Shown here in pieces: positions 9,163 to 14,541 of a stretch of 64,000 bases of DNA (position 1 is its first letter; each line of letters starts with the position of its first letter). The notes under the pieces are model-generated. The model was not told the origin of the DNA. It saw only the letters and a program-made list of their open reading frames with translations, and made no database searches. Position numbers and translations under genes: made by a program. Origin of the DNA: Longimicrobiales bacterium (GTDB lineage Bacteria; Gemmatimonadota; Gemmatimonadetes; Longimicrobiales; Gaopeijiaceae); assembly GCA_965219445.1 (NCBI GenBank), contig CBDCNQ010000002.1:512001-576000 (forward strand). Direction: 5' to 3'.

Positions 9163-10561
9163 TCAGCCCTGTCCGTGCACTTTTACCGGGGCCCACGGTT
9201 GGCTCAGAATGGACGTGCCGGCCTGGCCCAGATCGTTGGCGCCCCAGCACCAGACATCTCCGTCCGCGGTCAAACCGCAGGTGTGTTGCCTTCCCGCCGC
9301 GACCTGGGTAAACGTGTGACCCCCGGTGACGGCAACGGGCTCCTCACGATATTCGGTGGTGCCGTCACCTAATCGACCCTCTCCGTTCTCGCCCCAGCAC
9401 CACGCAGCACCCCCCGTGGTCAGCCCGCACGTGTGGACGCCCCCGCCACTGATCGCGGCAAACGGACCGAACCCGACCATCGGAGCATATACGCTGCGTG
9501 CAAAATCGTAGCAGAACACCGACCCCAGAGAGGTGCGCGCGCAACGTCCGCTTACCTGTACAAAGAGGGAATCGGCCGTCAGACCCGTGGCCACGGGCAT
9601 CCGCAGGGGCACATACGAGCACCGCACCTGGATCGGGCCTCCCGCCTTGTCCACACCGTTCTGACAGGTCTCGGTGCCTGCCAGCGTCGGGCTGAAATTG
9701 TCGAGGTTACCCCAGCAGTAGAGGTGGCCCGCGTCGGTCACCCCGCAGGTCGTCGCCTCATGCGTATCGAGCGAGACCCACTGAAGGTCCCCGGCGACCA
9801 ATTCGGGTGTGGCGACGGGCCCGCTGCGTTGATTGCCACCCAACTTCCCAGTGCTGTTATCACCCCAGCAGTACGCGGCCCCAATGGAAGTCAGCCCGCA
9901 CGTGTGGCCCCAGGCGAGGGTCAGGGTGGTGAACGCCCGGCCGCCCGAGACCGCGACCGGATCGAAGAACCAGCGGCGTTCCGACACGCCGAGTTGCAGT
10001 GTGAAGTTGTCGCCCCAGCACCATGCGCTGCCGAACGTATCCAGACTGCACGCGTGAGAGCTACTCACCTGGACCGAGCGAGCGTCGGTCTTTCGGGGCA
10101 CGGGCATCGGACTGCACGGTGTACCCCAGCAGGTACTAATTGCGGGATCGACCCCCCATTGCCCGAGTTGGGAGCTACTCCCGGTTCCCCAGCAAAGGGC
10201 GATGTCGCCTTCGGAGACGGCGCACGAAGCCCGCCCGCCCGCTGCAATGTCCGTGACGGGCCCCATGACGACGGTGTCTGGTACGAACACGGCCAGAGAG
10301 TCCACGAGCCCGCCGGCTTCCGCCACCAGGAATGTGCGACCAGGCGCCCGCGCCTGGATGATTCTCGTGGGATCGTTCGGGGAGTCGGGACCGCTCGGGG
10401 AGAAACGAGGGGCGCCGACGTCGGAGGCGATCGAGCGATCGCGGATGATCCAGTTGATTTCGGCGGTAGGAGGTGTCTCGAAGCACCCCGATTGCACCCA
10501 CGCCTGATCTGCCGATCCCACCACCAGATGCAGGGAATCAGGGAAGAGGGCGACGTCGGTA
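9163..10561 (-). pseudogene. RCC1/BLIP-II repeat beta-propeller protein, 5'-truncated at the IS256 left end
   Basis: Repeated HTCGLT..G.A(W/Y)CWG.N..G.LG units. The frame (..TDVALFPDSLHLVVGS..) runs up to the IS256 repeat at 10562 with no signal peptide. Could still be translated from GTG at 10524. Confidence 0.75.
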
Positions 10562-10722
10562 GAGCTAGGATCAAAGGCATCATAGGGGCATGGCGACCGC
10601 TACCGGTACCGATCAGCAGCGAAGCAGCCCGAAGACGAAGAGGCGTTCTCCTCCGGGAACGGGTGCGCGTTCATCATTGTTCGCGCAAGGAAGCAACCCA
10701 CCTATCCAAGAGGAGAACGCCG

Positions 10723-11970
10723 ATGGAGAGATATATCGGACTCGACGCACACGCGTCGAGCTGCACGCTGGGGATTGTAGGCCCCAGCGGCAAGCGCTTG
10801 GGCTCGCAGGTGGTGGAGACGAACGCGCGGGCGCTGATCGAGGTGCTGCGAGGGATTCCGAGGAACCGGCACTTGTGCCTGGAAGAAGGGACGCTGTCGG
10901 GGTGGCTGTACGAGGTGCTGGAGCCGCACGTGGAGGAGCTGACGGTGGCGGGGGTCGGCAAGAGCCGGGGCCCGAAGACCGACAAGCTGGACGCGTTTGC
11001 CCTGGCGGAGAAGCTGCGGATCGGATCACTGGAGACGAGGGTCTACAAGAACCGGGGCCAGTTCAGGCGGCTGGGGGAACGGGCGAAGAGCTACGACTTC
11101 CTGGTCGGCGACACGGTGCGGGTGAAGAACCGGCTCAAGAGCGTGCTGCGCTCGAGAGGAGTGGCCTACGGCGCGGGGCGCTCGGTCTACTTGAAGCGCG
11201 ACCGGGAGGAGTGGTTGGCCAAGCTGCCGGAAGCGAGCAGGACGACGGCCGGGTTGCTGTACGAGGAGCACGACGCACTCGTGGCATTGAGGGCGAAGGC
11301 CGAGAAGGCGTTGCTGGCGGAAGCACGCAAGCATCGAGAGTGGCATGTGCTGAAGACGTGCCCGGGTCTGGGTCCGATCCGGACGGCGGAGCTCCTGCCG
11401 GTGGTGGTGACGCCGTACCGGTTCCAGAGCCGGAGCAGGTTCTGGGCGTACTGCGGACTGGGCGTCGTGATGCGGAGCTCGTCGGACTGGGTGCGGGGTC
11501 CGGGTGGGCGGTGGGTAAGGGAACCGGTACAGCAGACGCGGGGGCTGAATCGGAACTTCAACCACACGCTGAAGCGTGTGTTCAAGGGCGCGGCGACGAC
11601 GGTGATCGGTCGGGCCGAAAACGAACCCTTGTACCGCCACTACGAGCGACTCCTGGAGGGGGGCACGAAGCCGAATCTGGCGAAGCTGACGATCGCGCGT
11701 CAGCTCGCCTCGATCGTGCTAGCGGTGTGGCGCACGGGCGAAGCGTACGACCCAAGAGACTGGAAGCGACGGAGTAAACCGGCCTGGGATCGGCGAGCGT
11801 GGGGTCGAAAGCGGTCACAACATGGGGTCCGACGAAACGGAAGCGAACCGGTTACAGGGGACAGCATCCATACACACCGTGGGCCGGGGCAGAGAGCCCA
11901 AGCCCCCACTCAAAGGCTATGCACCCCTGGAAGAGCCGAACGAAGCGATGGGCCACAGAGTCCCAGATAG
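10723..11970 (+). CDS. IS110-family DEDD transposase/recombinase; probable native stop at 11777 after a 1-nt frameshift
   Basis: AGGAG RBS and ATG at 10723. YIGLDAH, CLEEGT and KTDKLDA (DEDD), TCPGLGPI, FWAYCGLGVVMRSSS (serine loop), ARQLASIVLAVWRTGEAYDP. Confidence 0.93.
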   Translation: MERYIGLDAHASSCTLGIVGPSGKRLGSQVVETNARALIEVLRGIPRNRHLCLEEGTLSGWLYEVLEPHVEELTVAGVGKSRGPKTDKLDAFALAEKLRIGSLETRVYKNRGQFRRLGERAKSYDFLVGDTVRVKNRLKSVLRSRGVAYGAGRSVYLKRDREEWLAKLPEASRTTAGLLYEEHDALVALRAKAEKALLAEARKHREWHVLKTCPGLGPIRTAELLPVVVTPYRFQSRSRFWAYCGLGVVMRSSSDWVRGPGGRWVREPVQQTRGLNRNFNHTLKRVFKGAATTVIGRAENEPLYRHYERLLEGGTKPNLAKLTIARQLASIVLAVWRTGEAYDPRDWKRRSKPAWDRRAWGRKRSQHGVRRNGSEPVTGDSIHTHRGPGQRAQAPTQRLCTPGRAERSDGPQSPR

Positions 11971-11985
11971 AAGGATGGTTCCCGC
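11778..11985 (+). ncRNA. Putative bridge/seek RNA of the IS110 element (ends approximate)
   Basis: Hand folding: a 5' domain closed by AACCGG/CCGGTT; a stem CAGGGG..GCAT / ATGC.CCCCTG (11855-11929) enclosing an internal loop with target matches TACACACC and TCAAAGG; a second stem GAGCC/GGTTC enclosing ATAGAAGG, identical to the element's right end. Confidence 0.78.
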
Positions 11986-12144
11986 TCCAGAGCGGAGAAC
12001 GCGACGGCTGTGAACGTCTTCCGGACTGCGATGCGGACCCTGCGAGCGCACCCCTCCCCACCCTGAGTCGTCGACCGGGCAATCCAAACCATGCGGACGC
12101 CGACGGTCAAAAAATGAGCCGACGGCGCGTGGGGAAGGTGCGTC

Positions 12145-12167
12145 TTGACCGCCAGCCCCATAGAAGG
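12145..12167 (+). promoter_or_regulatory. -35 half of the IS110 circle-junction promoter
   Basis: TTGACC at 12145-12150 is followed by exactly 17 nt to the element end. The left end begins CATCAT (10578-10583), a -10-like hexamer. Confidence 0.7.
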
Positions 12168-12263
12168 GTGTGTAAAAAAAGAGGCGACGTACCTTTCCGC
12201 TAGGTAGTAAGAAGTTAACCAGCGAATCCCGGGTGAGCGCCCGGGGGAAAGGAACGATGCCTC

Positions 12264-13508
12264 GTGAGGAAGAATATGGTGGGACCCGAGAGTGAGTCCA
12301 GCACGCCGACGTGGGAGTGCTTGGAAGCGCTGGTTCGTGAGAAGGCCCAGGAGATGGTCCAGCGGATTCTGGAGGAGGAAGTGACGGAGTTGCTCGGCCG
12401 GGAGAAGTCGGAGCGGAAGACGGTCGTAGACCCGGCGCCAGGCTACCGCAACGGCTACGGCAAGGCTCGGCGGCTGGCGATGAGCTCGGGCACGATCATG
12501 CTCCGACGGCCCCGGGTTCGAGGCATTGAGGAGCGGTTCGAGAGTCGGGTGTTGCCGTTGTTCGCACGACGGACGAAGGAGGTGGGTGCTCTGCTTCCGG
12601 AGCTGTATCTGCACGGGCTGGCGGAGGGAGACTTCGAGCTGGCGATGCGGGGCCTGCTGGGCGAGGGGGCCCCGTTGTCGAAGTCTTCGATTTGGCGGCT
12701 GCGGGCGGGATGGACGGCGGAGTTCGAGGAATGGAGCCAGCGTCGCCTGGAGGGCCGTGAGGTCGTCTACGTATGGGCGGACGGGATCTACGTGAAGGCA
12801 GGGCTCGAGCGGGACAAGGCAGCGCTGCTGGTGGTTCTCGGTGCGATGCGAGACGGGACGAAGGAGGTGTTGGCCCTGAGATCGGGCTACCGAGAGTCGG
12901 TCGAGTCCTGGTCCGAGGTGTTGCGGGATCTGAAGGCACGCGGCATCGAGGCGCCCCGGCTTCTGATGGCGGACGGCAACGCGGCGATCTGGGGCGCAGT
13001 ACGGCAGGTATGGCCTGAGGCGGGCGAGCAACGGTGCTGGAACCACAAGATGAGGAACGTGCTGGACCGGCTGCCTCAGCGGGAGCAGAGCGAGGCGAAG
13101 GACCTTCTCAGGACCGTGGTCTACGCACCGAGGCGGTCCGAGGCGCTGAAGGCCCGTGAGGCGTTCGCCAGGCGCTACAGACCGTGGTATCCGAAGGCGG
13201 TGGATGTACTCGAGGACGACTGGGAGCGGATGGTGGCGTTCTACGACTTCCCCGAGGACCACTGGAAGCATCTACGCACGACGAACGTGGTCGAGAGCCC
13301 CTTTGCCGCAGTACGGCTCAGGACAACGGCGGCGAAGCGCTTCAAGCGGGTCGAGAGCGCTACGGCGCTGATCTGGAAGCTGCTCTTGGTGGCGGAGAAG
13401 CGCTTCAGAAGGCTCGACGCTCCTCACCTCCTCAAGGACGTATTTGAAGGAAGAAAGTTCGAAGACGGAAAGCCCGTCTCAACCCAACAGCGGAAAAACG
13501 CCGCCTGA
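12264..13508 (+). CDS. IS256-family (mutator-type) DDE transposase
   Basis: GYRNGY, ELYLHGL, VYVWADGIY, LMADG, QRCWNHKMRN (CxxH), LRTTNVVES. Appears intact. Confidence 0.95.
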   Translation: MRKNMVGPESESSTPTWECLEALVREKAQEMVQRILEEEVTELLGREKSERKTVVDPAPGYRNGYGKARRLAMSSGTIMLRRPRVRGIEERFESRVLPLFARRTKEVGALLPELYLHGLAEGDFELAMRGLLGEGAPLSKSSIWRLRAGWTAEFEEWSQRRLEGREVVYVWADGIYVKAGLERDKAALLVVLGAMRDGTKEVLALRSGYRESVESWSEVLRDLKARGIEAPRLLMADGNAAIWGAVRQVWPEAGEQRCWNHKMRNVLDRLPQREQSEAKDLLRTVVYAPRRSEALKAREAFARRYRPWYPKAVDVLEDDWERMVAFYDFPEDHWKHLRTTNVVESPFAAVRLRTTAAKRFKRVESATALIWKLLLVAEKRFRRLDAPHLLKDVFEGRKFEDGKPVSTQQRKNAA

Positions 13509-13537
13509 AACATTTACACACCTATTGACCCAACCTC

Positions 13538-14541
13538 AAAACCCCATGCGCGTGAGCCAATCCTGCCCTCGGATCGTGTAAGCGACCGAGATGTCACGGA
13601 GCTTTACGTAGCCCGCGTCCTCGATGAACTGGCTGGCCGGGCCCGTGAAGTGGGAGCCGATGCCGTCCAAGAACCATGTGGACCAGTTGATGGGCACGGA
13701 CGTCCTCGCCCCCGGCCCGGCGACATCGTACTGCTCGAGGAACGTCTCACCGAAGGTTTCGTTCTGCCCTGCGCCCTGGTACTGCTCGAGGTCCGCGTGC
13801 GTACCGTAAGTGTAGAGCGCACCCCTTGTGCCGTTCCACATTTGGCCGCCGTGCTTGAAGTCCAGGAGTGCGGAGATCCTCAGGTTGTCACCGATCCGGA
13901 CGTTGTTCCGGATACTGGCCGTCCAGTCCGCGTTCGCGTCCCCGATGACACGGCTCTGGGGATCCTGCTGGGGATAGCCGTCGGAGTGGATGTAGACGTC
14001 CCCTGCATTCCACTCCGTGTAGGTGGCGTCGATGTCCACATCGGTAGCCGTATCCAAGCTCCCGTTGCCGAAGCGAACGAAATCACTGCCGAAAAACACT
14101 CCAATGGGGTGGCAAAGGGTGATGTCGCCGCTGGCGTTCCGCTCCGGAGCGACCACGGAGTTCGTGATTCCCACAAAGCCCGTGAGCCCGAACTCCTCGG
14201 TCCCCGCAAGGTCCTGAGCACAGCTGTCGTTGGTGGCCCACTGGCCGACGACCTCCCACGATACTCCGCTCCTTTCCACGACGTTCGCTGCGGCGGTTAG
14301 TTCCCACCCCCGGTTCTCGAACTCCGCGGCGTTGGCGAACTTGCTGAAGAAACCCGTGCTGGGGGACACGTCCACCGCGAGAATTGCGTCCTTCGTCTGC
14401 TGATAGTAGTAGGTGACTCCCAACCTCAAGCGATTCTCCAAGAACGCGACGTCTGCGCCGGCCTCGTACTCGGTGGTACGCTCCGGCTTGATCTCGTTAT
14501 TGCCCAAGATGGTCTCGCGGACGACACCCTCGTTCCCCCCG
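13538..14541 (-). pseudogene. SusC/RagA-like TonB-dependent receptor, 3' fragment, truncated by IS256
   Basis: GNNEIKPERTTEYEAGAD, NAAEFENRGWEL, FIEDAGYVKLRDISVAY. Ends at ..RMGF with a stop created by the IS256 end; the usual final beta-strands are missing. Confidence 0.88.

Follow-up and report, generated by a model that had tools for sequence, protein, structure and literature searches.

An IS1111-type element recurrently found within the left inverted repeat of an IS256-family insertion sequence, at a site that corresponds to its predicted guide RNA

Why does one insertion sequence lie inside the very end of another, and is such an arrangement an accident, a reversible switch or the outcome of targeting? 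The question is raised by a 64,000-nucleotide (nt) stretch of DNA from a Longimicrobiales bacterium, referred to below as the window (C2:512001-576000), which is part of a metagenome-assembled genome of 4.56 Mb in five contigs (G000). In the window a 1590-bp IS110-family insertion sequence of the IS1111 type (10578-12167, plus strand), which starts with CATCAT and ends with ATAGAAGG, is inserted 16 bp within the left inverted repeat (IRL) of an IS256-family element, whose 1386 bp lie in two parts, 10562-10577 and 12168-13537. We consider it very probable that the insert occupies a 14-bp site, TCAAAGG/GGTGTGTA, which is matched by its own predicted guide RNA, and that it likely disables the IS256-family element.

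The nested anatomy can be read directly from the junctions. The outer 16 bp of the IRL, GAGCTAGGATCAAAGG (10562-10577, plus strand), are severed from the inner part, GTGTGTAAA (12168-12176), to which they are joined directly in empty copies of the IS256-family element. When both parts are rejoined, the resulting 25-mer is identical at 20 of 25 positions to the reverse complement of the right repeat (13513-13537). AAGG is found at 10574-10577 and is repeated at 12164-12167 as the last four bases of the insert; the right AAGG travels with the insert, since the right end reads AAGA in 4/4 copies of a related genome (G042). The original prediction had placed an IS1111-type element in this repeat, with the outer 16 bp at the same position, AAGG at both junctions and a rejoined repeat matching its partner at 20 of 25 positions. 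All of this was confirmed, the identity of the two elements by sequence and by the Pfam domains of both transposases. Its assignment of the outer 16 bp to the IS256-family element and not to the insert is borne out by the one off-target copy of the insert, which lacks them. The left junction is crossed without difference by a 5134-nt contig of an independent run (X1 record 1), with 13 nt on the element side.

The gene of the insert (10723-11970, plus strand) starts with ATG at 10723 and encodes a DEDD transposase with the domains PF01548 (E = 1.2e-9) and PF02371 (E = 1.7e-7), both past the cut-offs. In intact copies and relatives the transposase has 351 amino acids (aa) and ends in YDPKRLEATE. 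The non-coding regions of the insert comprise 390 nt downstream and 145 nt upstream of the gene. Subterminal inverted repeats, GGGGCATGGCG on the left (10585-10595, plus strand) and CGCCAGCCCC on the right (12150-12159), were identified by comparing the left end with the reverse complement of the right end; they lie 7-8 nt in from each terminus and differ by one indel. Transposases of the IS1111 group measure about 330-350 aa (PMC11187229; this and the other published studies are cited here for selected passages). The intact 351-aa form agrees with this length, and the long downstream non-coding region and subterminal repeats of the 7-17 bp class are also found in the insert. The C-terminal motif, aligned within its own clade, reads CGLG(I/V)V(T/M)RSS(S/A)D as compared to GL-P----S(T)G of IS1111, with the serines kept and P and G replaced. 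A phmmer search of solved structures gave no match to the insert transposase at E up to 0.01. An open reading frame at 10590-11777 was also considered as the gene of the insert and rejected, being in the wrong frame and without a Pfam match. This frame, which overlaps the transposase gene, extends without a stop over as many as 526-528 codons in 12 of the 22 copies, and its length is probably a by-product of high G+C content.

The remaining 1370 bp of the IS256-family element (12168-13537, plus strand) contain the inner IRL, a gene for a protein of 414 aa at 12264-13508 and the right repeat. The gene product is a Mutator/IS256-type DDE transposase (PF00872, E = 7e-59, profile positions 23-372 of 379), and TGTAAA is present at repeat positions 20-25 of both ends. 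Terminal repeats in which TGTAAA lies subterminally and target duplications of 8-9 bp are described as traits of the IS256 family (PMC7780238). Direct duplications of this length were found for 9/22 IS256 units in G000, 6/8 in G044 and 4/7 in G042. In G000 they lie directly outside the IS256 ends of seven of 17 composites and of two of five empty copies.

The situation in the window recurs throughout the genome, far more often than expected by chance. We found 22 full copies of the insert in G000, sharing 97-100% identity. The left flank is of the IRL type in 21 of them, 20 reading GAGCTAGGATCAAAGG and one reading GAGGTAGG..., and the right flank is GTGTGTAAAAA in 19. The exceptions are one copy in a look-alike site, one with a rearranged right flank and one that is followed by a partial tandem copy. 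Of the 24 full-length IS256-family copies, 18 are occupied and five are empty, while the remaining one differs at its left end. A search for junction strings gave 23 left and 21 right junctions, while the uninterrupted target 14-mer TCAAAGGGTGTGTA was found 0 times in 4.56 Mb. The corresponding 14-mers of the right repeat, TCAATAGGTGTGTA, are identical to the target at 12 of 14 positions and are uninterrupted in 29 of 29 cases. Recurrence at the same site was observed in G000 and in four related genomes. A one-off chance insertion or an assembly artefact was rejected, as copies with distinct flanks and variants exist and an independent contig crosses the left junction.

Two kinds of exceptional copies deserve description. 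The look-alike site (C2:336726-338315, L010) lies outside IS256 and reads GACTCAAAGG to the left and TGTGACGC to the right of the insert; TCAAAGG and TGTG are kept, with one G fewer. Tandem partial copies are located at C5:1611142-1613245 in G000 and at L041 in G043, with the right end ...ATAGAAG fused to an internal position. The sequence at this position is CTGACGATCGC... in L041, and the partial copy in G000 begins at about element position 1080. This suggests that the right end recombined with an internal site to give rise to the tandem copies.

Recurrence could also be produced without repeated targeting, if the nested pair were a composite copied whole by the IS256 transposase and the occupied copies stemmed from transposition of the pair. 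The AAGA right junction common to all four checked G042 copies would fit such copying, as would the integration of an ISCth4 junction with 14 bp of the left repeat (PMC7780238); both models predict the duplications of 8-9 bp that lie beyond the outer 16 bp in composites. The relationship between the IS256 parts and the inserts makes this explanation unlikely. Occupied IS256 copies come from several subfamilies, with 80%, 90% and 98-100% identity to the window copy, and near-identical inserts are found in subfamilies 10-20% apart. In the main subfamily 15/20 IS256 copies are identical over 1370 bp, whereas 21 different sequences occur among the 22 inserted elements, their 37 variable columns forming mosaic patterns. 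A single composite copied over and over would not have left such a pattern, which speaks for independent insertions. The insert copy in the look-alike site outside IS256 also argues against copying of the pair, as do the loop strands described below, which match the site and covary with the flanks in relatives.

How the site would be recognized is suggested by the insert itself. In a single-sequence fold, the 390-nt region after the stop codon forms a stem, an internal loop and a capping hairpin. This structure (11855-11929, plus strand) is the predicted target-binding module of a seekRNA or bridge RNA, with the stem closing the internal loop. Both halves of the 14-bp target are matched by strands of the one internal loop: the 5' loop strand TACACACC (11871-11878, plus strand) is complementary to the top strand GGTGTGTA of the right half, and the 3' loop strand TCAAAGG (11910-11916, plus strand) equals the top strand of the left half. 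TACACACC is located 5' of TCAAAGG, and the two matches overlap at one target G. For IS1111-family seekRNAs it is described that the top-strand match comes first and that the matches overlap in the target (Siddiquee et al., PMC11187229). Insertion is confined to the left repeat because its right counterpart deviates at two of the 14 guide-matched positions, and these two differences go with all 29 untouched sites.

A conserved second RNA module, followed by a third hairpin, occupies 11935-11995 (plus strand). Its loop strand AUAGAAGG (11967-11974) equals the last 8 nt of the element; the loop reads AUGGAAGG in eight distant relatives (columns 131-142), and in a single case (L060) the second loop and the right end of the element both read ATGGAAGG. 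Judging from these identities, the second module is likely the part that binds the donor end. At the right end of the element (12145-12167, plus strand), the terminal ATAGAAGG and the right subterminal repeat are accompanied by TTGACC, which is placed 17 bp away from the terminus. Relatives have conserved both TTGAC and CATCAT. In a circular form, TTGACC and the CATCAT of the left end would make up a junction promoter, for which the junction promoter of ISEc11 (PMC11187229) serves as model. We infer that the RNA is expressed and serves the DEDD transposase as a guide.

In order to compare guides and flanks we collected 78 related loci, from which 27 RNA regions were aligned for a consensus fold. 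The consensus contains 29 pairs, 12 of which show compensatory changes, and two internal loops. Relatives with 60-82% protein identity have different loop strands, and these match their own flanks. The right flank matches the 5' loop at 9/9 positions in L049 and L058 and at 8/9 in L047, L050, L053 and L094. The left flank matches the 3' loop in L050 (AAGGATAGG, 9/9), L078 (CCGATAAG, 8/8), L043 (ATCAAAGG, 8/8) and L063 (GCATAGG, 7/7), and again at 8/8 in L085 and L095. When scored by the longest shared run, fixed-register scoring being judged too crude, the exact run shared with the window guide measures 8 in its own flank and at most 4 in ten other flanks. A more distant IS110-family relative with 40% identity is present in 15 copies in G005 (L005, L009, L012; also L006 in G004). 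All copies of the G005 relative have the right flank GTCTCTGCGATTCTGC while their left flanks are variable, so this relative uses a different target.

Empty sites provide natural controls. All five empty IRLs of G000 carry one edit within the 14-mer, and no unchanged empty IRL accompanies the 22 full inserts. In G042 six full inserts (4/4 checked in AAAGG repeats) are accompanied by no unchanged empty site and by eight empty sites with one edit, all of which read AAATG. Occupied and AAATG copies of G042 belong to one IS256 subfamily and are 97-99% identical. The AAATG variant is mobile, since four of seven AAATG copies have their own perfect 8-bp duplication. G043 contains two full inserts and no empty site, either unchanged or with one edit. 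In G007 four full inserts (4/4 in the IRL) occur together with five empty copies with unchanged 14-mer and three with one edit. The single full insert of G044, which has an intact transposase and identical loops, is found beside 45 unchanged and three one-edit empty IRLs. G041 also contains a single full insert, together with seven unchanged empty IRLs and one with one edit; the loop strands of this copy are changed to TACGCACC and TCACTAGG, and it is located beside a sequence resembling the right repeat. Among the genomes compared, the look-alike site in G000 was the only occupied site found to have an edited 14-mer. The data represent a natural record of guide tolerance of an IS1111-type element across several genomes, in which a single substitution or 1-nt indel within the 14 bp is accompanied by emptiness, 25 such one-edit empty sites being counted over five genomes.

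The free copies also bear on the left end of the IS256-family element as it had been reconstructed in the original prediction. In G000 the reconstruction was not recovered exactly, each free copy being one edit off, whereas the contiguous IRL of free copies in G044 and G041 is exact over the 20 bases searched (45 and 7 exact 20-mers, respectively). GAGCTA precedes the contiguous IRL in 8/8 listed G044 loci and in 6/8 listed G041 loci, and the full reconstructed end is present to the same extent.

It had further been proposed that clean excision would turn the insert into a switch, with the insert leaving precisely and often and restoring a working IS256 element, so that one element toggles the other. 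There is precedent in the IS110 group, as IS621 and IS492 are described to excise scarlessly (PMC11208160). Unchanged empty-IRL contigs were present in 4/4 runs (2-6 per run, with loose ends before 12164), which may come from other loci or strains, and the young burst of identical IS256 copies implies that some copy recently had a whole repeat. Nevertheless we regard the switch as quite unlikely. G000 contains no unchanged empty site. Neither a joint skipping 10578-12167 nor a circle junction was found in contigs of four runs over 10300-12500, a weak argument as contigs drop rare forms; the circle-junction string was not found in the G000 assembly. ISEc11, a member of the IS1111 family, is reported to form circles without regenerating the empty target (PMC11187229), and excision of IS621 to be less efficient than insertion (PMC13626964).

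The sequences of the empty G000 copies are likewise at odds with clean excision. Two of the five are members of old subfamilies (about 90% identity), for which a substitution within the 14 bp is nothing unusual. The other three are members of a young, otherwise identical subfamily and read CAAGG, CAGAAGG and CGAAGG, amounting to three changes in about 250 bp of target compared to two or three in about 25,000 bp elsewhere in these copies (counted by hand). Of the 98 single edits that are possible, six can be derived by joining the left flank ATCAAAGG to the right end ATAGAAGG with the register shifted, and all three young edits are among the six, whereas neither edit of the old subfamilies is. 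The young edits are shifted-junction edits in form and not clean sites, and they are probable scars of imprecise removal of the insert, a pattern that was noticed post hoc and in which one of the three edits is a homopolymer slip. Junctions do vary, as one G007 copy (L038) has the right junction ATAGAAG-AAGG-GTGTGT, with three extra bases (AAG) in comparison to all other copies.

Hardly credible is a choice of target by the protein alone or by the DNA structure of the repeat, with coincidental loop matches: no RNA was observed here and the left halves of the targets of relatives are alike (GGATAGG), which could reflect a protein preference, but many relatives whose targets differ have their matches at the same pair of loop positions, two of them at 9/9, the stems around the loops show compensatory changes, and RNA was required in experiments on four IS1111-family members (PMC11187229).

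Several observations have to be set against guided insertion that immobilizes the IS256-family element. The window copy of the insert has a 1-nt deletion near 11750, by which the last seven residues of the transposase are replaced by a 71-residue tail to give 415 aa in total. The base at indel column 1180 is absent in 5/22 copies, and contigs of 4/4 runs show an extra C behind 11750. Filling of sites is not universal, with 45 unchanged sites empty in G044, seven in G041 and five in G007; from the empty sites of G044 and G007 it follows that insertion is slow, recent or conditional there. Guide and flank fit poorly in L065, with runs of only 4-5, and in L054 (7/9). The cases of covariation are not independent because relatives share ancestry and targets. 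An Rfam scan of 10000-14000 gave no match at E up to 1. Only 9/22 IS256 units of G000 keep a direct duplication; the flanks of the others are swapped and find their partners at other copies, a sign of IS-mediated rearrangement or, possibly, of joins made at repeats when this metagenome-derived genome was assembled. Finally, integration in vitro is still reported for an ISCth4 junction that retains no more than 14 bp of the left repeat (PMC7780238).

The likely consequence for the IS256-family element can be derived from the same system. In ISCth4, which has an IS256-family transposase, one protein domain contacts bp 7-11 of the repeat and another contacts bp 14-25 including TGTAAA (PMC7780238). 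The insert parts bp 1-16 of the IS256 repeat from bp 17-25 with the subterminal site containing TGTAAA. Since bp 1-16 are severed from bp 17-25, which are bound in ISCth4, normal recognition of the left end is likely lost, and by this analogy the insertion likely disables the IS256 copy and would immobilize it. As a separate observation, the window IS256 copy contains a patch of about 25 differences at 12716-12963 (alignment columns 549-796) that is common only to the copy at C4:112456; it looks like gene conversion from a diverged subfamily.

The surroundings of the nested pair are also informative. The composite in the window has no target duplication, being flanked by CGTCGGTA on the left (10554-10561) and AAAACCCC on the right (13538-13545). 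The partner CGTCGGTA is located to the right of another composite 92 kb away (C2:618516-618523 in G000). The unmatched flanks are indicative of either IS-mediated rearrangement or a join made at the repeat during assembly. An uninterrupted form of the window locus, in a relative, is present in contigs of runs X8 and X9. The neighboring genes, both on the minus strand, encode an RCC1-repeat protein (9163-10524) and a beta-barrel fragment of a TonB-dependent receptor (13536-14507), the reading frame of which stops at the IS256 boundary.

Targeting of the repeats of one mobile element by another has precedents. In Pseudomonas putida H, IS1383 is reported to use the inverted repeats of IS1384 as its specific integration target (Muller, Lauf and Herrmann in 2001). 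This case resembles ours in that an IS110-family element targets the inverted repeat of another insertion sequence, and differs in the host phylum. For IS4321 and IS5075 of the IS1111 family, Partridge and Hall reportedly described in 2003 that insertion is directed to the terminal repeats, 38 bp in length, of Tn21-family transposons; a logo of their target is mentioned in PMC11187229. The comparison to these elements, already drawn in the original prediction, is apt: they also have subterminal repeats, insert at one position and in one orientation within the terminal repeat of another transposon and have filled many sites. Here, in contrast, the host is a small IS256-family insertion sequence instead of a Tn3-family transposon, and only the left repeat is used. 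RNA guidance was demonstrated experimentally in 2024 for ISEc11, ISPa11, ISKpn4 and IS621 (PMC11187229; PMC11208160). With these the insert shares a DEDD transposase, a guide in the 3' non-coding region, a top-strand match located 5' of the bottom-strand match, the overlap of both and TTGAC near the right end. It differs from them in its C-terminal serine motif, RSS(S/A)D and not S/T-G, and in that its guide is predicted from sequence. We found no report in the literature searched of an IS110-family element in IS256-family repeats, although the supplementary target tables of PMC11187229 and PMC11208160 may already hold one. Targeting of the repeats of another element by the IS110 family is already published, and no new mechanism is established here.

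Taken together, targeting of the site is well supported, and from covariation and the close analogy to known systems we propose that a guide RNA from the 3' region would direct the DEDD transposase to the IRL site. The IS256-family element would move as long as its repeat is whole and would be trapped once the repeat is occupied, and in G000 this trap would have run to saturation. Free IS256 copies would then be those with repeats that no longer pair with the guide, either through old substitutions, through a spreading variant as in a related genome or, probably, through scars of imprecise removal. The idea of the original prediction that a multicopy repeat offers a neutral landing site fits such a course of events. 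Whether the two elements are engaged in an arms race of guide and target is a more tentative matter. It is possible, though we would not favor it on present evidence, that the RNA-guided element traps every IS256 copy with an intact IRL and thereby brakes its expansion, that IS256 escapes via variants such as AAATG (eight free copies in G042) and via scars that immunize sites in a one-way ratchet, not a switch, and that variant guides as in G041 are a counter-move.

In the present case every intact landing site in G000 is filled, and the natural record of saturation and escape is unusually clear. The finding illustrates how a mobile element that uses the ends of another as a safe place to land may keep the latter in check. 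In addition, it provides a compact pair of transposase and guide from the Gemmatimonadota with more than 25 relatives whose guides differ, which is useful for studies of natural guide reprogramming.

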